Below are positions 1,471-16,716 of a stretch of 17,769 nucleotides of DNA, piece by piece. This stretch comes from Erysipelotrichaceae bacterium (GTDB lineage: Bacteria; Bacillota_I; Bacilli_A; Erysipelotrichales; Coprobacillaceae). The notes under the pieces are model-generated. The model made no database searches. It worked only from the letters and a program-made list of their open reading frames with translations, and was not told the origin of the DNA. The stretch lies in the NCBI GenBank assembly GCA_028698185.1, contig JAQVDW010000033.1:1-17769 (forward strand), in the 5' to 3' direction. How positions within the stretch are numbered: the first letter of the stretch is position 1; each line of letters starts with the position of its first letter. The translations under genes and the position numbers were made by a program.

Positions 1471-4137
1471 TTATTTGTCTTTTACCAAAATGTCTTCAGT
1501 AGAATGAGCAACCAAGATTTGTTCAGCCGCCGCCTGCGCCGCTGCCAACCGGGCAACCAAAACCCGATAAGGTGAACATGAAACATAATTCAATCCGACA
1601 TTGTGACAGAATTTGATTGATTCAGGATCACCACCATGTTCTCCGCAAATACCAAGTTTAAGATTTGGTTTCACTTCACGACCTTTGGTTGAGGCAATTT
1701 GAACCAATTGGCCAACTCCTGACTGGTCAAGAGACACAAATGGATCTACTTGGACCAATTTCTTTTCTTTATAATCAGGCAAGAAACTTCCAATGTCATC
1801 ACGTGAGAATCCATATGTCATCTGGGTCAAGTCGTTTGTTCCAAATGAGAAGAATTCAGCATGTTTGGCAATGCTGTCGGCAGTCAACGCTGCTCTTGGA
1901 ATTTCAATCATTGTCCCAATCTTGTATTCCAGTTTTGTAGAGCGTTTAGCGAGTTCGAGTTCTATCGCCTTTGTGATATTGCCTTTTACATAGACGATTT
2001 CAGATTCCTGACCAACTAAAGGAATCATGATTTCCGGAACGATGTTGCAACCAAGTTCATTTTGGACATCGATTGCCGCATTGATGATTGCACGCACCTG
2101 CATATTGTAAATTTCAGGGTAAGTTACCGCTAACCGGCACCCACGGTGACCCAACATCGGGTTCGCCTCATGCAAACTGTCACCTTTGACCTTGACTTCA
2201 GCCAATGTTTTTCCCAACTTGGCTGCAACAACCTGATATTCTTCATCCGTATGTGGCAAGAACTCATGAAGAGGTGGATCCAATAAACGGACAGTAACCG
2301 GCAGACCAACCATAGCCCGGTAGATTCCTTTGAAGTCTTCAATTTGGAACTTATACAATTCTTCCAAAGCAAGCTCACGTTCTTCCAACGTATCTGAAAG
2401 GATCATCTGTCTTACATATTCGATCCGGTCACCCTCAAAGAACATATGTTCGGTCCGGCACAACCCGATACCTTCAGCTCCGAATTTGATAGCTGTATCC
2501 GCGTCTTTTGGTGTATCCGCATTGGCGCGAACCCCCAACGTCTTGATTTCATCGGCCCAAGACATCAGTTCCGCGAAATCCCCAGTCAATTCTTGTTCTT
2601 CAACCGCCAAGGCACCGGCATAGACATTTCCGGTAGTTCCATCAATGGAAATTTCAGTGCCTTCAGGATATGTTGTCCCGGCAATTGTGAATGTTTTCTC
2701 TTTATAGTTGATCGACAAACCTTTAGCCCCTACAACGCAAGCTCTACCCATACCACGGGCAACTACAGCGGCATGCGAAGTCATACCTCCAGTAGAAGTC
2801 AAAATTCCCAGACAAGCGTCCATACCTTTGATATCCTCAGGAGAAGTCTCATGACGGACAAGGATAACTTTTTCACCTTTTTCAGCACATTCAACTGCTT
2901 TGTCAGCCGTCAAATAAACTTTCCCTGACGCCGCCCCAGGAGAGGCAGGAAGTCCACTTAACATAACCTCGCCCTGATCCAATGCCGCTTTGGTGAAGTT
3001 AGGGTGCAACAATTGTGAAATCTGATCAGGCTCAACCCGAGTCAATGCGGTAGGCTTGTTGATCAAGCCTTCATGCACCAAGTCCACTGCAATCTTCAAC
3101 GCCGCATGACCGGTTCTTTTCCCGTTACGGGTTTGGAGAATGTAGAGTTTTCCTTCTTCTACGGTGAATTCACAGTCTTGCATGTCGCGATAATGCAATT
3201 CAAGTCCTTTTACAATCTGAATCAGCTGATCATAGATATGTGGCATATCTTCAGCAAGACGGTCAATTTTCAGCGGAGTCCGGATACCGGCCACAACATC
3301 CTCACCTTGGGCATTGATCAGGTACTCACCATAGATATGATTTTCTCCGGTTGCCGCATTACGGGTAAACAATACTCCTGTACCGGAGCTGTCTCCCATG
3401 TTCCCAAATACCATTTCCTGCACGTTTACCGCAGTACCAAGGTCATGAGGAATATTGTTCAAGTTACGGTACACGACCGCCCTTTCATTCATCCATGAGC
3501 TAAATACCGCCAGAATCGCTCCCATCAACTGTTGTTTAGGATCTTGAGGGAAATCGCGGCCCAGTCTGGCTTTAAAGATTGCCTTGTATTCAGGAATGAC
3601 ATGATCTTTGAAATCGGCTGCAGTGATATCCAGGTCAGATTCATAGCCATTCTTTTCTTTCAATTCTGTCAGAACCTCTTCGAAAAGTTCCTTGTCCACC
3701 CCACAGGCAACATCGGAATACATTTGGATGAAACGACGATAAGAATCGTAGGCGAAACGGATATTATTTGTTTTGTTCGCCATCACCTCAACTGTTTCAT
3801 CATTAAGTCCAAGGTTCAATATCGTATCCATCATCCCTGGCATCGAGAATTTTGCACCAGATCTCACAGATACAAGTAACGGATTTTCCTTCCCACCCAA
3901 AGTTTTATCGGTTACTTTTTCAAGTTCACTGAGACATACATCAATTTGTCGCTTGATTTCATCGTTGATAATTTTTCCATCAGCATAGTACTCGTTGCAA
4001 GCCTCTGTGGTTACGGTGAAACCTTGTGGCACAGGTAAATTTAAGTTTACCATCGCAGCTAAATTAGCTCCTTTTCCACCAAGAAGGGCTCTCATTGTTT
4101 CGTTACCTTCTCTAAACATGTAAACATACTTCTTCAT
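1471..4137 (-). CDS. ppdK: Pyruvate, phosphate dikinase
   Basis: 888 aa, the expected length. The N-terminal ATP-grasp region carries GGKGANLAAM. The phosphohistidine motif GGMTSHAAVVARGMG and the C-terminal PEP-utilising motif GICGEHGGDP are present. SD AAGGAGGAA lies upstream of the ATG. Confidence 0.95.
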   Translation of the reverse strand: MKKYVYMFREGNETMRALLGGKGANLAAMVNLNLPVPQGFTVTTEACNEYYADGKIINDEIKRQIDVCLSELEKVTDKTLGGKENPLLVSVRSGAKFSMPGMMDTILNLGLNDETVEVMANKTNNIRFAYDSYRRFIQMYSDVACGVDKELFEEVLTELKEKNGYESDLDITAADFKDHVIPEYKAIFKARLGRDFPQDPKQQLMGAILAVFSSWMNERAVVYRNLNNIPHDLGTAVNVQEMVFGNMGDSSGTGVLFTRNAATGENHIYGEYLINAQGEDVVAGIRTPLKIDRLAEDMPHIYDQLIQIVKGLELHYRDMQDCEFTVEEGKLYILQTRNGKRTGHAALKIAVDLVHEGLINKPTALTRVEPDQISQLLHPNFTKAALDQGEVMLSGLPASPGAASGKVYLTADKAVECAEKGEKVILVRHETSPEDIKGMDACLGILTSTGGMTSHAAVVARGMGRACVVGAKGLSINYKEKTFTIAGTTYPEGTEISIDGTTGNVYAGALAVEEQELTGDFAELMSWADEIKTLGVRANADTPKDADTAIKFGAEGIGLCRTEHMFFEGDRIEYVRQMILSDTLEERELALEELYKFQIEDFKGIYRAMVGLPVTVRLLDPPLHEFLPHTDEEYQVVAAKLGKTLAEVKVKGDSLHEANPMLGHRGCRLAVTYPEIYNMQVRAIINAAIDVQNELGCNIVPEIMIPLVGQESEIVYVKGNITKAIELELAKRSTKLEYKIGTMIEIPRAALTADSIAKHAEFFSFGTNDLTQMTYGFSRDDIGSFLPDYKEKKLVQVDPFVSLDQSGVGQLVQIASTKGREVKPNLKLGICGEHGGDPESIKFCHNVGLNYVSCSPYRVLVARLAAAQAAAEQILVAHSTEDILVKDK

Positions 4138-4170
4138 ATATGTTCCTCCTTATTTCTTAACCATAAATTT

Positions 4171-4199
4171 ATTATACACCTGAAAACCCTTTCATTCAA
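4171..4199 (-). promoter_or_regulatory. Candidate sigma-A promoter of ppdK
   Basis: Minus strand TTGAAT (4199-4194), 17 nt spacer, TATAAT (4176-4171). This is about 34 nt upstream of the ATG. Confidence 0.6.
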
Positions 4200-4259
4200 T
4201 GATTTTTTACGGTAAAATATTTCAAATGTTGTCGCCTCAGTATCGAATTCATGAAAAAG

Positions 4260-4279
4260 GTGCATAAATTGTGCATAAA
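4260..4279. repeat. Tandem direct repeat GTGCATAAA x2 with 11 bp period
   Basis: GTGCATAAA at 4260-4268 and again at 4271-4279. It lies between the helicase terminator and the ppdK -35 element. Confidence 0.85.
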
Positions 4280-4307
4280 AAGAAAAGACAAACCATAAGG
4301 TTTGCCT
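4277..4307 (-). terminator. Rho-independent terminator of the DEAD-box helicase gene
   Basis: The minus strand reads AGGCAAACC-TTAT-GGTTTGTCT, 9 bp with one G-U pair, followed by TTTCTTTTT. It starts 9 nt after the stop at 4316-4318. Confidence 0.7.
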
Positions 4308-4315
4308 AAAAATCA

Positions 4316-5896
4316 TTAATCTTGGTTGTTTGATATTTCAATATTAACCCGACGGTTGCGGATTTTCTTTTTGGAACAGTTTTTAATCAATTTTTGCACT
4401 ACAAAACTGTTTACATCTACATAAGTGTTTTTGCGGTTGATTTCAATTGAACCTATGTCGCTTTTGCGGATTCTTCCTTCATTGCATAGGAACCCGACAA
4501 TCGCACCCGGATTTATTTTATCCATTGTACCACAAGTCATGAAGATTCGAGTCATGTCACCGCTGTTGTTGTGTCCAACTTGTTCGATTGTTTCACGGGT
4601 ATAATTGTACCCTGGATTTGATTCATTGAGCATGTACAACAAAGCTGCCGCGAAGTCATCTCTGATGTTCGGGTCGATTTCATTGATCTGTGATTTGAAT
4701 TTCTTGTGTTTTCCGGCAAAAATTGCATCCTCGACGTCGCTGATTAACGAAAGCACTTTGTTTTCGTTGATTTGAGTCAAAGTAGGAACTTCAAGTTTTT
4801 CGATTTTTGAGTTGGTAGAACGTTCAATCTGACGTAAAAAACCTTTCTCTTTAGAAACGACGATAGTGACCGCCTTTCCTTCGCGATTGGCTCTTCCCGT
4901 ACGACCAATTCTATGTACGTAAGATTCGATTTCCTGTGGCAATTCGTAGTTGATTACGTGTGTAACGTCATCAACGTCGATTCCGCGGGCTGCAACATCT
5001 GTCGCAATCAGGAAATTGATTGTCTTGTCCTTGAATTTTCTCAAAGTGTTGCTGCGGTGGTTTTGAGTCAGGTCGCCATGCATAGCCTCAACTTTGTAGT
5101 TGGCTTTTTGCATTTTTTCGCAGACTTCATCTACCGATCTTTTTGTACGGCAGAAAATGATACCCGATTTCACTCCATCAAGATCGATACAACGGCATAA
5201 AGCCTCGAAACGATCCTTAGGGCTCACTTCATAGTAATATTGCTTTACCGTTGAAGCAGTACGTGTTTTCGACTCGATTTTTACATGATCGTAGTCGGTT
5301 TTCATGTAGTTTTGCGCGATTTTCTTAATTTCCGCAGGCATTGTCGCTGAGAACAAAACAGTCTGATGGTCCTCAGGGACTGTCTGCAGAATTGTTTCGA
5401 TATCTTCCACAAATCCCATGTTCAGCATTTCATCAGCTTCGTCCAATACGACGTAGCGAACTTCATTAAGTTTCAAAACCTTACGGCGCATCAAGTCCAT
5501 GATTCTTCCAGGAGTCCCGATTACGATATCAATACCCCTCTTGATGGTCTTGATCTGTCTTTCGATATCACTGCCACCATATACACAAGTGACTTTTGCA
5601 TTGTTATATTTTCCAATCCGACCAAACTCATCGAAGATTTGCATCGCAAGCTCGCGAGTCGGTGAAATGATAATTGCCTGAGGATTTTTTGAATTGTTAT
5701 TATGGATTAATGAGAGTATCCCACCACCAAAAGCCAAAGTTTTCCCAGTCCCTGTTTGTGCCTGTCCTATAATATCTTTACCTTGAATCACTAACGGGAT
5801 CGCCTCTTCTTGAATCTTTGACGGTGAAGTAAATCCCATATCTTTTATTGCATTTAAGACCTCTTCCGAGAGTCCTAGTTTACTAAAATTTTCCAT
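4316..5896 (-). CDS. DEAD-box ATP-dependent RNA helicase with a DbpA/DeaD-like C-terminal RNA-binding domain
   Basis: 526 aa with Q motif GFTSPSKIQ, motif I AQTGTGKT, Ia PTRELA, II DEAD, III SAT and VI HRIGRTGRA. The C-terminal about 75 aa (MTRIFMTCGTMDKINPGAIVGFL...) resembles the DbpA RNA-binding domain. SD GAAAGGA is present. Confidence 0.92.
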   Translation of the reverse strand: MENFSKLGLSEEVLNAIKDMGFTSPSKIQEEAIPLVIQGKDIIGQAQTGTGKTLAFGGGILSLIHNNNSKNPQAIIISPTRELAMQIFDEFGRIGKYNNAKVTCVYGGSDIERQIKTIKRGIDIVIGTPGRIMDLMRRKVLKLNEVRYVVLDEADEMLNMGFVEDIETILQTVPEDHQTVLFSATMPAEIKKIAQNYMKTDYDHVKIESKTRTASTVKQYYYEVSPKDRFEALCRCIDLDGVKSGIIFCRTKRSVDEVCEKMQKANYKVEAMHGDLTQNHRSNTLRKFKDKTINFLIATDVAARGIDVDDVTHVINYELPQEIESYVHRIGRTGRANREGKAVTIVVSKEKGFLRQIERSTNSKIEKLEVPTLTQINENKVLSLISDVEDAIFAGKHKKFKSQINEIDPNIRDDFAAALLYMLNESNPGYNYTRETIEQVGHNNSGDMTRIFMTCGTMDKINPGAIVGFLCNEGRIRKSDIGSIEINRKNTYVDVNSFVVQKLIKNCSKKKIRNRRVNIEISNNQD

Positions 5897-5932: not shown

Positions 5933-5982
5933 CAGTTTTTCCGACAATAAAACAAAAACATTCGATTTCATCAAATAAAATT

Positions 5983-6006
5983 AAAAAAAAAGGACTCTCG
6001 TCCTTT
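5983..6006 (-). terminator. Rho-independent terminator ending the long asnS-containing transcription unit
   Basis: The minus strand reads AAAGGAC-GAGA-GTCCTTT followed by six further T. The stem overlaps the TAA stop at 6006-6008. Confidence 0.8.
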
Positions 6007-7379
6007 TACAAGCGGTTTCTTTTTGCGCCAATCAAGAAAGCTTCGATGTTCTTCTGGATTTCATCAATAACTCTCTGCCTTGTTTCAAATGGAGCCCATG
6101 CGATATGTGGTGTCAAAATCAGTTTGTTGCCGTCTTCGACTTCGAAAAGACAAGAATTTCCTGGCAGCGGCTCGTTTTCAAACACATCCAATGCCGCACC
6201 TGCAATCTCATCTTCATTCAGGGCCCTTACCAGGTCAGCCTCGTTGATGATCTTGCCCCGGCCGACATTGACAATGTAGGCGCTGTTTTTCATCTTTTTG
6301 AATGCCTGATAATCGAAAAGGTTTTCTGTAGACTCATTCAACGGTGCGTTGATAGAGATGAAATCACTTGTCGTCAGAGCCGTGGCAAAGTTAACCCTTT
6401 CGTAAGGTTGTTTAGAGTTCAACCCCGAGGTCGAATAGTATTGGACCTTCATCCCCAAAACGGTAGCGTACTTGGCCATTTCCTGACCGATTGCCCCCAT
6501 TCCGACAATAGTCAGAACCTTGTTGTCCAACTCATAAAAAGTGTTTGAAAAATGAGAGAATGAATTGAGGCTAGAATATTCCTTGCTTTTGACGAAATTG
6601 TCATAGTAAAGAAGATGGTTGTTCAAAGCCATCATCAAACTTAGACCATGACTGGCAACCGCCTTGGTCGAGTATCCTTTCACGTTGCAAGAGGCAATGC
6701 CCTTGTCTTCAAGGTAATCAAGATCAAGATTGTTGTATCCGGTCGCCGTTACACATATCAGCTTCAGCTGATCGAAATCCGCCAATGAGGTTTCATCCAT
6801 TATGACTTTGTTTGTGATGATTATGTCATGATCTTTGGCGACACCTTCTAGATTTACCAGGTTATGGTAATCGATAAAATCACCATAATCGTCAAACCGG
6901 CTCAATTCGATATCCTGGCCAATGCTGTTAGAATCAAGTATCCCAATCTTGAGCGGCTTCCAGTCAAAGGCGTTTTTCAACAGTGTTTCGTTGTCTTTGA
7001 CCAGCTGTCCTAGTCTGATTGCCTCATTGACATCAAGGTAAGGTGCTTCCTTCAAAATAGCAGTTGTTTTGCCCGAAGATGTCCGATACTCCAATGCGTT
7101 TTGCAGCATCAAGATACCCAGGGCCTGGTTAGTCGCTGATGCGTATTTTTCAAGATTCCCTTTCAATTCGAGCAGGAACCCAGGTTGACCATCTACAGCT
7201 TTTAGCAGCGCTTCTTCCAAGGTTTCGCTATGCAAAACCACCCTTTTGAATGTGTCATTGTAGATAAGAGGCAAGATATAATCGTACAGATCAATCTCAC
7301 AAGAACCATAACCCTTGGTAAAAGAGTAAAGTATGATCGCCCCCAATGACGAATCTTTCATCCCTTCAATTAAGCTCAT
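6006..7379 (-). CDS. Fusion protein: about 140 aa N-terminal helical domain of unknown function plus a complete HprA/glycerate-dehydrogenase-type D-2-hydroxyacid dehydrogenase
   Basis: 457 aa. Residues from about 143 to 457 match the D-isomer-specific 2-hydroxyacid dehydrogenase pattern: ATGYNNLDLDYLEDKGIASCNVKGYSTKAVASH, NAD-binding GMGAIG (293-298), NVGRG (R374), DVFENEP (E403) and TPHIAW (H425). Residues 1-142 are an extra module not present in canonical enzymes. The ATG is 1 nt after the upstream stop (TAA-A-ATG) and has no SD. Confidence 0.8.
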   Translation of the reverse strand: MSLIEGMKDSSLGAIILYSFTKGYGSCEIDLYDYILPLIYNDTFKRVVLHSETLEEALLKAVDGQPGFLLELKGNLEKYASATNQALGILMLQNALEYRTSSGKTTAILKEAPYLDVNEAIRLGQLVKDNETLLKNAFDWKPLKIGILDSNSIGQDIELSRFDDYGDFIDYHNLVNLEGVAKDHDIIITNKVIMDETSLADFDQLKLICVTATGYNNLDLDYLEDKGIASCNVKGYSTKAVASHGLSLMMALNNHLLYYDNFVKSKEYSSLNSFSHFSNTFYELDNKVLTIVGMGAIGQEMAKYATVLGMKVQYYSTSGLNSKQPYERVNFATALTTSDFISINAPLNESTENLFDYQAFKKMKNSAYIVNVGRGKIINEADLVRALNEDEIAGAALDVFENEPLPGNSCLFEVEDGNKLILTPHIAWAPFETRQRVIDEIQKNIEAFLIGAKRNRL

Positions 7380-7380
7380 T

Positions 7381-8844
7381 TTAAATTAACGTCACTTTGA
7401 GACGCTGTCCTCCTGTTTTTTTTACATCCTCATAAACGCTGATGCAATAACGGAATTTACGGTGTTTATGAGAATATTTCAATATATTGTAACTAAGATA
7501 ATGGCGTTTGTCTTCCTTGACGTAGCTTTGAGCCGACGATCCGGCTGAAACTACCGTCAGATTGCCATGGCGAATGCAGCTTGGCAGATGGCGGTGGCCA
7601 TGGAAAACATATTTGGCATCATATGATTTGAGCCAGTAAAGAAGCAAATCGGAATCGATCAGTGCTTTCGAGTTGTCAATGTAGCGGCCGATGAAAATGT
7701 TGTCAACCCATTTTTGTTTCAAAAACTCATCCCGACGGATTGGAAACAAGTGGTGGTGGAGCATCACGATCATGGTATAATCCCGCAAACCCTCTATTGC
7801 CTCTAGCTCCTCATCGATTTCCCGAAGCTGGATTTGCCCAACCGACCCTCTGGCGAAATTTCCTTCGACCATTGAATTGATCTTGACAATTATAATTTTT
7901 TCATTTTCAATAACACGAATGCTGTCACCAAGCAAATAGGCGACAATCTTTGTCTTCTGGGTCCTGAAAAGATTAAGTCCGTGAGTGATTATGTCATGGT
8001 TGCCCAACACAAAATCGACCTTGCCACCAAATCTTTTTTTCAATAGGTTCATGAAACTGGTGACCTGGTACATGTTGGTGACTGTCGGCGAATTCATCAG
8101 ATCCCCGGTAATCAGGAATTTTGTCTGATATGATGAATCTATTTTCTTGATTATCTGGTCGATTGACGAAAGCAACAACAGCTTGTGTTTTTCAGTAGCC
8201 TTGTTGTTCTTGAAATGAAGGTCGCTAAGGTGAAAGAAATATGAATCGGTATTTTCAAAACGGTAGTCGAAAACCGTATCATTGTCAATCATCTCAAACG
8301 CTTCTTCGATATGTTCCGGTTCCCTTATCTTGATAAAGCGGTACCGGTCGTCTTTGAAGACAAGTATTCCTGGCCATTTCTCTATATTCAATATCCCCTT
8401 GATTAGGGCGCTGTATGGCCTTTGGAAAAGCAGTTCGCTTTCAAAAAGAATCTTCCTGTTGGTGAAAGTCCTGATCTTGTCGCTTTGAAGCGACCGGACA
8501 TAATCCAGGTTGGAAAATATCTGGTTGACCTCATAATCCTCATCAAGACCAGAGAAAAAGACAACCTGGTACTTCCGGTTTTCGGAATATTTGAAAGCCT
8601 GGAGCTGATTAACCGCATTTTTGGAAAAGTGTCTTAAAGTGTCCTCTTCATTATTGTCGTTTAATATGTCCCGTTGAATGCCTTCGGTTATTTCATCAAC
8701 GATATCAAGATGGATGTCATTGAAGGTCAGCCATTCCTTGATGATAGTCCTTCTTGTTTCATCCATCAGGTAATCCAGGACAAAATAACGTGAATTGTTA
8801 AAGATAAGCTGATAATAGGCATTGATGACATCGTAATCATTCAT
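7381..8844 (-). CDS. Two-domain protein: uncharacterised N-terminal domain (about 1-200) plus a calcineurin-like metallophosphoesterase (about 202-470)
   Basis: 487 aa. All canonical MPE motifs occur in order: HLSDLHF (D208, H210), ITGDLMN (D248), LGNHD (281-284), LHHH (363-365) and HGHRH (415-419). I recognised no known motif in the N-terminal 200 aa. The start lies 12 nt after the asnS stop and has no SD. Confidence 0.8.
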   Translation of the reverse strand: MNDYDVINAYYQLIFNNSRYFVLDYLMDETRRTIIKEWLTFNDIHLDIVDEITEGIQRDILNDNNEEDTLRHFSKNAVNQLQAFKYSENRKYQVVFFSGLDEDYEVNQIFSNLDYVRSLQSDKIRTFTNRKILFESELLFQRPYSALIKGILNIEKWPGILVFKDDRYRFIKIREPEHIEEAFEMIDNDTVFDYRFENTDSYFFHLSDLHFKNNKATEKHKLLLLSSIDQIIKKIDSSYQTKFLITGDLMNSPTVTNMYQVTSFMNLLKKRFGGKVDFVLGNHDIITHGLNLFRTQKTKIVAYLLGDSIRVIENEKIIIVKINSMVEGNFARGSVGQIQLREIDEELEAIEGLRDYTMIVMLHHHLFPIRRDEFLKQKWVDNIFIGRYIDNSKALIDSDLLLYWLKSYDAKYVFHGHRHLPSCIRHGNLTVVSAGSSAQSYVKEDKRHYLSYNILKYSHKHRKFRYCISVYEDVKKTGGQRLKVTLI

Positions 8845-8856
8845 CGTTCTGGCCTG

Positions 8857-10251
8857 TTAGAACTTGAGATTACGAGGAGTTCTAGGGTATGCCACAACAT
8901 CGCGGATGTTAGACACGCCGGTCATGAACATCACCAGACGTTCAAAACCGATCCCGAAGCCGGCATGGTTGACCCCGCCAAAACGGCGCAGATCAAGGTA
9001 CCATTGCAGTGTTTCTTTATCAATGCCTTTTTCCTCCATCATTTGCTCAAGAACCTCATAGCGTTCTTCCCTTTGGGAACCTCCGACCAGCTCGCCGATT
9101 CCAGGAACAAGCAAGTCACATGCGGCAACCGTCTTGTTGTCGTCATTCAAGCGCATATAGAATGCCTTGATATCTTTTGGATAGTTGATGATGAAAATAG
9201 GCCCTTTGAACACCTGTTCGCATAAGTATTTTTCATGTTCGCTGGCCAAATCGATTCCCCATGAAACCGGGTTCTCGAATTTTACATTAGCCTCCTGGAG
9301 CAGGTCGATGGCATCGGTATAGTCAAGACGCTTGAATTCGCTGTTCAACACTGCTTTCAGGCGGGATACCAATGTCTTTTCCTTGTCGACAAAATCATTG
9401 AGGAATTCCATTTCCGCTGGGGCTTCCTCCAGAACATACTGGATGCAAAACTTGATACAGTCCTCGATGAGATCCATATCATCTTCAAGGTTCGCAAACG
9501 CGATTTCCGGCTCGATCATCCAGAATTCAGAAGCATGAGTCGATGTGTTTGAATTCTCAGCTCTGAAGGTTGGCCCAAATGTATACACATCGCGGAAGGC
9601 CATCGCAAATGACTCGACATGTAGCTGACCTGAAACTGTCAGTGAAGCGTGTTTCCCAAAGAAGTCTTTTTCATAGTTGTCATCACTTCGGGTAGTGACA
9701 GTGAATGTTTCCCCGGCTCCCTCAGCATCGTTACCTGTGATGATCGGAGTTTGGACATAGACAAAACCTTGCGATTGGAAAAACTCGTGGATAGCCATCG
9801 CCAGAACCGAACGGACTCTGAAGGTAGCCAGATATGTGTTGGCGCGTGGACGAAGATGAGGTATCTCGCGCAAATATTCCAAAGTATGGCGTTTCTTTTG
9901 CAAAGGGAAATCTTCGGCACATTTGCCTTCAATAACCAATTCCGTAACCTCAACTTCAAAAGGCTGTTTCCCTTCAGGGGTAAGTTTGAATTTACCAGTG
10001 ACCTTGATAGCCGAACCGGTAGTCAATTTTGCCGCATCTTCAAAATTATCAAGGGTTTCCTCCAAATAAATCAACTGGATGTTTTTAAAGTATGTTCCGT
10101 CATTCAAGGCGATAAAACCGATTTTTCCACTATTGCGGTTTGTTTTTACCCATCCCTCAAGCTCGATCATATCCAGACCTTCAAATTCTAATTCCTCGCC
10201 ATATAAAAACATTTCATATAGCTCTCTAACCGTTTTAAATTCAAACATCAT
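8857..10251 (-). CDS. asnS: Asparagine--tRNA ligase
   Basis: Class IIb aaRS with an N-terminal OB-fold anticodon-binding region ([22 protein letters not shown]). Motif 3 is [15 protein letters not shown] and the C-terminus is [11 protein letters not shown]. The track ORF begins at a TTG (10266), but AGGAG at 10260-10256 is followed by ATGATG at 10251/10248, so I place the start at 10251. Confidence 0.93.
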
Positions 10252-10287
10252 AACTCTCCTTTTCAAATGTATTTTTCCGCTGTTGGA

Positions 10288-16035: not shown

Positions 16036-16548
16036 TCAATCTATAAATTTCAAGAATCTTTTTTTTATTGCTTTACTGGATTCCAGAACTTCGACGAACT
16101 CTTTTCTTACATCCAATCGTTGCACATCAACCATTCTGGCATCACCAAATTGCAAGCGAACATAATCCGCTCCCCGGAATCTTTCGATCTTTATATCCAT
16201 TTCAAAGTGACTTGCCGGTGAATCATCTTTTATCGACGTGCAAGGTATTACAAGCATCTTGACCCCGTAATCGCGATAAACATAACACCAATGACCATCA
16301 CAAAGTTCTTTAGGGAAGCCCCTTCCAATATTGAAATAAGCCAATTGATAACGTTTGGGTCTTTTTTTAAGACTATAGAAAACCTCACCTTCATCCGACT
16401 GGTTTTCAAGATAACAGTAGAAAAAACAAAGCTGGTGGGTTTGCTCCAAAAGTGAATGCACATAGGTCGACGCATCATAATCGCTTTCTTCATGCAGTCT
16501 TTTAAGGCTATAATTCAACTTATTTAATTTCTCTTCATAATTTTTCAT
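16036..16548 (-). CDS. MazF/PemK-fold (CcdB/MazF superfamily) toxin-like protein with an about 70 aa N-terminal extension
   Basis: YQLAYFNIGRGFPKELCDGHWCYVYRDYGVKMLVIPCTSIK...YVRLQFGDARMVDVQRL aligns by eye with the MazF/EndoA pattern (VYFADL..G.EQ.G.RPVLVI...V.PLTS...LL.QIRTID..RL). I prefer the ATG at 16548, 8 nt after AAGGA. The maximal ORF extends to 16566. Confidence 0.5.
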   Translation of the reverse strand: MKNYEEKLNKLNYSLKRLHEESDYDASTYVHSLLEQTHQLCFFYCYLENQSDEGEVFYSLKKRPKRYQLAYFNIGRGFPKELCDGHWCYVYRDYGVKMLVIPCTSIKDDSPASHFEMDIKIERFRGADYVRLQFGDARMVDVQRLDVRKEFVEVLESSKAIKKRFLKFID

Positions 16549-16716
16549 TTTCATTTTCCTTTTCATATTTCTTGTGTTTAGTTTTCTTTACTTCATCTAG
16601 CAGCTGGATACTCAGCCACATAATAATACAATCCGACTTACTCTTATGGATAACAATAAACGATGTTGTCATATTTACCAATTGTGCTTTTGGGATGCTT
16701 GACAATCGCTACTGCA

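Follow-up and report, generated by a model that had tools for sequence, protein, structure and literature searches.

What are a metallophosphoesterase and a D-2-hydroxyacid dehydrogenase doing together at the tail of an asnS operon? The question is raised by a contig of an Erysipelotrichaceae bacterium (JAQVDW010000033.1; family Coprobacillaceae), the whole 17,769 nt of which we refer to as the window, and in which two minus-strand genes, here called gene 1 and gene 2, follow asnS. An earlier note, drawn from the sequence alone, had proposed that the two form an undescribed linked unit, that the N-terminal extensions of both proteins are adaptor or sensor domains and not ordinary parts of enzymes, and that the pair might be a mobile or defence-type two-gene system. 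To us, gene 1 and gene 2 have the appearance of a domesticated pair of enzymes and not of a mobile defence system. More fully, we see an even chance that the pair is specific to the Coprobacillaceae lineage, that it consists of conflict-system parts fixed at a housekeeping locus, and that its products form a complex linking the hydrolysis of nucleotides or NAD to the state of the dehydrogenase.

Architecture of gene 1 and gene 2

As the earlier note had described, the two genes lie in tandem behind asnS (8857..10266, minus strand), which is the upstream gene of the same transcription unit and whose stop codon is separated from the start of gene 1 by a gap of 12 nt. The gene 1/gene 2 junction (7377..7383, minus strand) reads TTA ATT TAA A ATG AGC, that is TAA-A-ATG, an arrangement that points to translational coupling. 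The operon is closed by an intrinsic terminator of its own (5978..6007, minus strand), also foreseen in that note, in which a hairpin at 6007-5988 with an 8-bp stem and a 4-nt loop is followed by a T-run and overlaps the gene 2 stop codon. A terminator scan of the window detected none at the asnS/gene 1 or gene 1/gene 2 junctions; the remaining terminator-like sites on the minus strand lie inside tsaD (11604-11585) and after the helicase gene (4307-4286). Both exact proteins are held by NCBI, from an 'Erysipelotrichaceae bacterium' metagenome-assembled genome (MAG).

Gene 1 (7381..8844, minus strand; 487 aa; MDD3810414.1, annotated 'metallophosphoesterase') comprises a helical bundle, a thioredoxin-like domain and a calcineurin-like phosphoesterase. 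The catalytic domain (residues 199-487; 7384..8250, minus strand) carries all the metal-binding motifs and then a C-terminal beta region. Pfam Metallophos matches residues 203-445 with 36.6 bits against a cut-off of 21.5, and the five metal motifs of the calcineurin-like superfamily (DxH, GD, GNH[D/E], H and GHxH) are present within an alpha/beta sandwich. Residues D208, H210, D248, N282, H283, H363, H365, H415 and H417 are invariant in 40 homologues. The AlphaFold (AF2) model of the full-length protein has a predicted local distance difference test score (pLDDT) of 85 and a predicted template modelling score of 0.87, and its Foldseek matches include Lmo2642, GpdQ, Rv0805 and SMPDL3A at E 1e-9 to 1e-11. 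Searches of the PDB by sequence, with gene 1 or with its profile, returned only generic Mre11/SbcD/Rv0805-type matches in motifs I-III, together with a spurious match to PvuII. Bacillus subtilis YydB (9a6c_B, modelled in complex with YydD) was also among the top Foldseek matches; the sequence search did not recover YydB, and a literature search on this lead was uninformative.

The best family match of this domain comes from an anti-phage system. DS-9 is a two-gene system of a metallophosphatase and a HAD protein validated by DefensePredictor (PMC13092281), and the best NCBIfam match of gene 1 is NF053862, 'DS9_1_antiphage' (E 6.5e-19, 68 bits), some 35 bits above the next phosphoesterase model, the equivalog cut-off of NF053862 being 420 bits. 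When the gene 1 family profile was aligned with a bona fide DS-9A by hhalign, the match (98.5% probability, E 2e-15) was confined to residues 195-438, with 27% identity over 225 columns. Judged by these alignments, the gene 1 catalytic domain belongs to the same subfamily as that of DS-9A (PUA-Cal).

The first 200 or so residues of gene 1, described in the earlier note as unrecognised, do indeed match no model in Pfam or NCBIfam, and structure prediction now gives them a shape. Residues 1-89 (8578..8844, minus strand) form a seven-helix bundle that has no family match and diverges more than any other part of the protein, with about 20-30% identity between genera. Residues 90-190 (8275..8577, minus strand) form a degenerate thioredoxin-like fold of the order b-a-b-a-b-b-a (residues 92-187 in the model), with no CxxC motif. 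W157 is invariant in this domain and P158-G159 nearly so, and the resulting WPG loop is conserved in alignments of gene 1 homologues and in relatives from the Bacteroidota as well. The AF2 model of the N-terminal region has a pLDDT of 92, and its Foldseek matches in PDB and BFVD are all weak (E 0.004-0.15); since they are thioredoxin-fold proteins only, the region is not PUA-like. A PUA-like sensor, as one candidate for this part of gene 1, was ruled out by the AF2 and Foldseek results and by the restriction of the DS-9A alignment to the catalytic domain. An LmuA-type effector was likewise considered and rejected: the non-catalytic region matched no CTD family at E values up to 10, and hhalign against an LmuA with CTD7 was negative.

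Gene 2 (6006..7379, minus strand; 457 aa; MDD3810413.1, 'DUF6521 family protein') has two parts. Residues 1-143 (6951..7379, minus strand), which correspond to the N-terminal module of about 140 aa picked out in the earlier note, form an MC3 domain (PF20131, formerly DUF6521), homologous to the Lamassu middle component LmuC. PF20131 scores 24.5-27.8 bits here against a gathering cut-off of 23.2, matches 20 of the 22 diverse orthologous gene 2 N-termini examined (best E 4.9e-9), and is a precomputed match in about half of the top 120 full-length gene 2 homologues. A word-index search with the N-terminus alone returned nothing, and in its place a profile was run exhaustively against 1.84 billion representative proteins. 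That search found only 45 proteins, nearly all of them the MC3-dehydrogenase fusion or fragments of it; the sole exceptions are two proteins of about 160 aa, each encoded between a gene for LmuA with CTD7 and a third gene that is annotated LmuB in one of the two loci. We note that these loci (L077:676-3809 and L078:5797-9454) are two metagenomic Lamassu type II operons, with an LmuA bearing CTD7, an LmuC of the MC3 type and a third gene, which is annotated as LmuB in L078. Aligned by hhalign with one of these two operonic LmuC proteins, the gene 2 N-terminal profile is covered over the whole domain (95.7% probability, E 1e-8). By the definition of the Lamassu/ABC-3C middle components (types MC1-MC8), the gene 2 N-terminus is one of them. 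Positions invariant among gene 2 orthologues include, in this region, D9, F20, K22, G23, Y32, P37, T83 and G124.

Residues 144-457 (6009..6950, minus strand) make up the whole of a D-2-hydroxyacid dehydrogenase, one of the glyoxylate/hydroxypyruvate-reductase type. The Pfam domains PF02826 (2-Hacid_dh_C, E 2.5e-50) and PF00389 (E 1.3e-17) together span residues 144-452 at full length, the NCBIfam model PRK08410 scores 359 bits, just under its equivalog cut-off of 389, and the best relatives in the PDB are glyoxylate/hydroxypyruvate reductases (5tx7, 2dbq, 5aov). As the earlier note had held for both enzymes, the catalytic residues are intact: the GxGxxG glycines (G293, G295, G298) and R374, E403 and H425 are invariant in 36 homologues, so that both Pfam domains, the nucleotide-binding motif and the Arg/Glu/His set of the D-isomer-specific enzymes are present. 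The dehydrogenase is thus predicted to be catalytically competent and NAD(P)-dependent. Orthologues that lack MC3 begin with MxKIVFLD exactly at the fusion point. The LmuC of Vibrio cholerae is of the MC3 type; it joins the effector to a dimeric scaffold, with contacts to both protomers of LmuB and to the C-terminal, non-catalytic domain of LmuA (bioRxiv 10.1101/2025.06.23.660979, 10.1101/2025.03.14.643221). Given this published role, the MC3 matches and the alignment with an operonic LmuC, we take gene 2 to encode a dehydrogenase whose normal N-terminus has been joined to an LmuC-like adaptor.

Distribution, synteny and inheritance

About 177 homologues of gene 1, mostly of some 487 aa, were found in an index of 5.8 billion proteins. 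A scan of one genome per species yielded 68 loci, onto which the proteins of the window were mapped. As the earlier note had asked of its two families, they do co-occur: both genes were detected together in about 55 species genomes, which without exception belong to the Coprobacillaceae/Erysipelotrichales, in genera that include Thomasclavelia, Faecalibacillus, Coprobacillus, Massilimicrobiota, Longibaculum, Stoquefichus, Catenibacterium, Sharpea, Kandleria and Eggerthia. Most often the genes run in the order tsaD-rex-asnS-gene1-gene2. In nearly every locus with both genes, gene 2 lies directly 3' of gene 1, with a spacing of -4 to +9 nt in the clearest cases; this tight spacing is not chance, since it recurs in nearly all the orthologous loci.

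The two genes have also diverged together. Pairwise identities computed over 39 non-redundant genomes give matrices that correlate with r=0.94 for gene 1 with gene 2, as against 0.77 for gene 1 with asnS and 0.74 for gene 2 with asnS (Mantel p=0.001). Mean identity is 47% and 54% for gene 1 and gene 2 and 84% for asnS. Measured against the window, identity is about 70% for asnS, about 48% for each of the gene 1 catalytic domain and the dehydrogenase domain, about 35% for MC3 and 20-30% for the gene 1 N-terminus. Ratios of nonsynonymous to synonymous substitution (dN/dS) relative to the closest genome are 0.033 for gene 1, 0.073 for gene 2, 0.014 for asnS and 0.038 for tsaD, values that are rough because dS is saturated. 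No positive selection on the pair was seen in these estimates (0.03-0.07, with dS saturated); the pair is under purifying selection and is inherited vertically, which points to a unit kept in this housekeeping operon through all of the family's history. Gene 2 clearly evolves faster than the other genes around it: in that closest genome (L009), gene 2 is only 80% identical to that of the window, its neighbours 92-99% and tsaD 89%.

The pair stays intact where its surroundings change. Three loci (L007, L043, L047) have a PFOR gene in place of asnS upstream, and the downstream flank is either a DEAD/PPDK or a SpoVA/GerA block. A single Coprobacillaceae MAG (L082:2102-8001, the same locus as L020) has a 5.9-kb block between asnS and the pair, made up of ordinary genes (a glucosamine-6-P isomerase-like gene, DUF7832 and an OpuA-type ABC transporter), and the pair must there have its own promoter, since the block separates it from asnS. 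Taken together, the TAA-A-ATG junction, the single terminator, the adjacency across loci, the correlated divergence and the survival of changes in the flanks establish a functionally linked unit.

Neither the window nor those orthologous loci that were inspected contained defence or mobile genes, and PADLOC returned no more than marginal matches. The pair was absent from viral contigs, a scan of which gave two distant relatives of the catalytic domain only, and from plasmids, where true DS-9A genes only were found. Movement between unrelated neighbourhoods and enrichment near defence genes, both of which the earlier note had proposed to look for, were not seen in the orthologous loci inspected. 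That note had itself named fixed synteny with asnS or metabolic genes, in one clade and with no mobility, as the finding that would speak against it, and this is the pattern that the genome survey revealed. Its view of the pair has therefore held up in part: the linked unit, for which our literature search found no description, the accreted modules, and the conflict-system relatives (MC3/LmuC for gene 2, the DS-9A model for gene 1) are all borne out, while the mobile system of defence islands gives way to a unit of one clade in fixed asnS synteny, inherited vertically.

Some loci have peculiarities of their own. In the MAG GCA_029782595.1 (L007:9437-11009 and L008) gene 2 is called as two overlapping genes, an MC3 of 233 aa and a dehydrogenase of 303 aa, probably as the result of a frameshift, and the pair region is present on two contigs of the assembly. 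In Coprobacillaceae bacterium CR2/5/TPMF4 (L073, CP139560.1) only fragmentary matches were obtained for every gene of the locus, asnS, rex and tsaD among them, which suggests a frameshift-rich assembly and not decay specific to the pair.

Gene 1 has relatives of a different habit outside the family. Two proteins from the Bacteroidota, of 537 aa (L070) and 524 aa (L071), are homologous to gene 1 over a stretch that starts at about residue 78-91 and runs through to the C-terminus (E 5e-61 and 7e-55 in hhalign with the gene 1 profile) and that takes in the WPG thioredoxin-like domain and all the catalytic motifs. These relatives of about 525 aa have their own first 110 or so residues, different from the gene 1 bundle. 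One (L070:5437-7050) lies between IS91-type transposases and a tyrosine recombinase; the other (L071:521-2095) is followed downstream by a trypsin-like peptidase and then a HigBA pair. The number of full-length matches in a metagenome scan was 18 (loci L083-L100), a count that includes the L070 contig itself, and clustering of the neighbours across these loci detected no conserved partner and no MC3 or dehydrogenase neighbour, the only neighbour family common to several loci being the one with the L070 tyrosine recombinase. Patchy occurrence, variable neighbourhoods and adjoining mobile genes characterize these single-gene relatives and not the pair, and mobile conflict genes typically show themselves in this way, as single genes whose context varies. 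Proteins of this thioredoxin-like plus phosphoesterase type look like a mobile single-gene system that is as yet unnamed, neither a name nor a description having been found in the literature search or the family libraries.

The rest of the window is ordinary. Domain and family scans of all its proteins, covering 17.8 kb, identified rpsO, DUF1275, ackA, DUF402, tsaE, tsaB, rimI, tsaD, rex, asnS, a DEAD/DbpA helicase, PPDK and pfkB, so that all the identified genes outside the pair are housekeeping genes; no LmuB, PUA domain, HAD or NTPase sensor is among them, and an Rfam scan of the window found no RNA families. A 176-aa open reading frame between DUF1275 and rpsO (16036-16566, minus strand) has no Pfam match, and locus L001 has a similar unannotated gene of 169 aa in the same place. 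A 60-aa open reading frame between the DEAD-box helicase and PPDK genes (4134-4316, minus strand) matches no family, overlaps the hairpin at 4307-4286 and is uncalled in the orthologous L001; it is probably not a real gene.

Proposed mechanism and rival explanations

How might such a pair work? We posit that the products of gene 1 and gene 2, made in a fixed ratio by coupled translation, would form a complex. Enzymes of the D-2-hydroxyacid dehydrogenase family are obligate dimers, and the dehydrogenase dimer may take the place that LmuB has as a scaffold in Lamassu, with the LmuC-like domain helping in docking and the helical and thioredoxin-like domains of gene 1 serving as its regulatory or docking part. 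Gene 1 would most likely hydrolyse a phosphoanhydride or diester in a nucleotide-type substrate, such as NAD+, a (d)NDP or similar, because the systems that combine a phosphoesterase with a HAD protein act, depending on the study, on NAD+ or on deoxynucleotides. PUA-Cal-HAD, in which a PUA-Calcineurin-CE protein works with a HAD partner, senses m6-dAMP and converts dNTPs to dNMPs, with dADP to dAMP as the reaction given for PUA-Cal, and the MisA protein of Metis depletes NAD+ upon sensing m6dAMP (bioRxiv 10.64898/2026.01.15.699771; 10.1101/2025.11.05.686725). The activity of gene 1 would in turn be held or gated by the NAD(H) or 2-oxoacid state of the dehydrogenase, and the role of the whole would be physiological and non-immune.

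Several observations weigh against this proposal. The homology from which the gene 1 substrate is proposed is distant (27% identity over 225 columns), and stand-alone catalytic domains of 293 aa in housekeeping contexts (L072, L075) match the DS-9A model even better, at 83 bits for L072, so that such a match alone implies neither nucleotide nor immune chemistry. The dehydrogenase lacks MC3 in L021, L028, L036 (Kandleria) and L051, although the pair is kept; the MC3-less lineages nest among MC3-bearing ones, which is most simply explained by secondary loss. The Beduini group has gene 1 at another locus with no adjacent dehydrogenase. Loss of MC3 in at least two lineages (L021/L028 and L036/L051), together with gene 1 alone in Beduini, indicates that the adaptor is not indispensable. 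A mirror-tree test gave a partial r of 0.58 for the gene 1 N-terminus with MC3 and of 0.84-0.88 with the dehydrogenase domain, and hence no specific MC3 signal. In the Beduini locus itself (L031-L033, Beduini massiliensis and relatives; 5962-7440), a gene 1 orthologue of 492 aa lies between an M14 carboxypeptidase gene and a convergent gene of 250 aa, which has no family match and adjoins metH.

One rival is that the pair is an active anti-phage system, of the abortive-infection or dormancy kind, that has become fixed in the chromosome. The phosphoesterase would then be an effector that depletes NAD+ or nucleotides, the gene 1 N-terminal domains or MC3 would sense infection, and the dehydrogenase would be a guard, keeping a small-molecule trigger low or reporting a collapse of NAD(H), as the HAD protein does in Metis. 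Features of the architecture speak for it: the DS-9A-type catalytic domain; the order of effector and then MC3, which mirrors LmuA-LmuC; and MC3 itself, otherwise known from Lamassu only, since the profile-search matches outside the fusion are the two LmuC proteins of LmuA-LmuC-LmuB operons. The PUA-Cal-HAD preprint places Calcineurin-CE domains in the effector positions of predicted conflict systems, and MisB is reported to prevent toxicity by degrading the basal trigger (bioRxiv 10.64898/2026.01.15.699771; 10.1101/2025.11.05.686725), much as a guard would. The relatives of about 525 aa are partnerless, several of them beside tyrosine recombinases, IS91 or HigBA, and the pair diverges much faster than its neighbours. 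Against this, the pair occupies one locus across the family, is co-transcribed with essential genes, is inherited vertically and is under strong purifying selection; the window and the inspected orthologous loci hold no defence or mobile genes, the window is without LmuB, PUA domain, HAD or NTPase sensor, PADLOC is marginal, and the viral contigs gave two distant relatives only. We therefore regard an anti-phage system as unlikely. A more specific form of the idea, to which we would attach a still smaller probability, is a core-genome switch for immunity or dormancy, in which a phosphoesterase that depletes NAD+ or nucleotides would be held by the dehydrogenase through an LmuB-free LmuC adaptor, and the dehydrogenase would clear or report a danger signal in the form of a metabolite or NAD(H), by analogy with what the HAD protein does for m6dAMP in Metis. 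Were it true, it would provide a first case both of an LmuC-type adaptor that works without LmuB and of an effector of such a kind guarded by a dehydrogenase.

A more mundane possibility is an ordinary two-step pathway, in which the phosphoesterase removes the phosphate from a phosphorylated 2-hydroxy or 2-oxo acid, for instance of the phosphoglycerate type, the dehydrogenase oxidizes or reduces the product in the manner of a glycerate/hydroxypyruvate or glyoxylate reductase, and the N-terminal modules are lineage-specific decorations without a part in the mechanism. A dehydrogenase that is full-length, belongs to the glyoxylate/hydroxypyruvate-reductase type and has kept its catalytic residues would fit such a pathway, as would the vertical conservation, the dispensability of MC3 in some lineages, and the housekeeping context, where rex, a redox regulator, belongs to the operon and PPDK, pfkB and ackA are close by. 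What makes it improbable, to about the same degree as an anti-phage system, is that the nearest relatives of the phosphoesterase are DS-9A-type proteins and mobile single genes and not known sugar-acid phosphatases, and that the 200-aa gene 1 N-terminus and MC3 are kept under selection in most genera of the family. To our knowledge, no pathway pairs such a phosphoesterase with such a dehydrogenase, and a search of the related literature also gave no match. It is very unlikely, finally, that the two genes lack any functional relation and have only their place at the end of the asnS operon in common. The solitary gene 1 of the Beduini group, and the environmental relatives of gene 1 that are never beside a dehydrogenase or MC3, are what one would expect of independent neighbours; yet the two genes adjoin, with overlapping or near-touching frames, in about 50 genomes spanning some 35-50% protein identity, and the unit has been kept through rearrangements on both sides, with matrices that correlate at r=0.94.

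If the pair is domesticated, as we suggest, it would suggest that modules regarded as specific to anti-phage systems can separate from those systems: an LmuC adaptor and a DS-9A-type phosphoesterase would have been recombined with an enzyme of central metabolism as core genes. The pair would then be useful for the study of how immune parts are domesticated, or of how immunity becomes hard-wired, and it is at hand in genera (Thomasclavelia, Faecalibacillus, Catenibacterium) that are common in the human gut. If the dehydrogenase does gate the phosphoesterase, this would be a new coupling of redox or 2-oxoacid state to the turnover of nucleotides or NAD. The wider thioredoxin-like plus phosphoesterase family of about 525 aa, which behaves like mobile single-gene systems, would be of interest in its own right.

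Comparison with known systems

The likeness to DS-9, PUA-Cal-HAD and Metis lies in the plan. Here, too, there is a two-gene operon in which the first gene joins a non-catalytic N-terminus of about 200 aa to a phosphoesterase of the same subfamily, with the MLHHH and HGHxH motifs shared by gene 1 and DS-9A, and, as in these systems, the gene that follows codes for an enzyme that acts on small molecules and has a Rossmann-type fold. An operon of similar composition from a machine-learning screen is named as a precedent in the Metis preprint (bioRxiv 10.64898/2026.01.15.699771; 10.1101/2025.11.05.686725). The differences are in the parts and the setting. The gene 1 N-terminus is a helical bundle with a thioredoxin-like domain and is not PUA-like, and some 190 residues stay outside the DS-9A alignment; in place of a HAD phosphatase, none of which is encoded in the window, the partner is a 2-hydroxyacid dehydrogenase fused to MC3; and gene 1 reaches 68 bits with the DS9_1 equivalog model, whose cut-off is 420, whereas the reference DS-9A from a Klebsiella plasmid, with a HAD gene next to it and Hachiman beside it, reaches 571 bits. 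Unlike that DS-9A, the pair sits at a fixed housekeeping site with no defence island. The Klebsiella locus (L079; K. pneumoniae plasmid NZ_AP021931.1, 94171-104443) is such an island, with a restriction endonuclease, a hypothetical protein of 1040 aa, DS-9A and its HAD partner, and Hachiman HamA with its helicase; the same DS-9A phosphoesterase is found on 12 enterobacterial plasmids.

Lamassu type II and the other ABC-3C systems (LmuA-LmuC-LmuB; DdmABC) resemble the pair in the other gene. The gene 2 N-terminus is a homologue of the MC3-type LmuC, and, as with LmuA and then LmuC, a gene for an enzyme is followed by one with MC3 in an overlapping or abutting reading frame. Unlike Lamassu, the pair has no LmuB, the SMC/Rad50-like ABC ATPase, beside it, either in the window or in those orthologous loci that were inspected, its MC3 domain is fused to a dehydrogenase, and gene 1 differs from LmuA in having no CTD1-12 domain and in carrying its catalytic domain at the C-terminus instead of the N-terminus. 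We found no description of an MC3-dehydrogenase fusion, or of an LmuC-type domain without LmuB, in the literature search or the family libraries.

With plain glyoxylate/hydroxypyruvate reductases (PRK08410), gene 2 shares the whole enzyme over residues 144-452, with the NAD motif and the Arg/Glu/His residues invariant; it departs from them in its LmuC-like extension of 143 aa, in a PRK08410 score below the cut-off, and in being always coupled, within this family, to the phosphoesterase gene. As far as homology can tell, then, the pair shares its catalytic-domain subfamily with DS-9/PUA-Cal-HAD and its adaptor domain with Lamassu, and, since it fails the defining features of both, it should be filed under neither.

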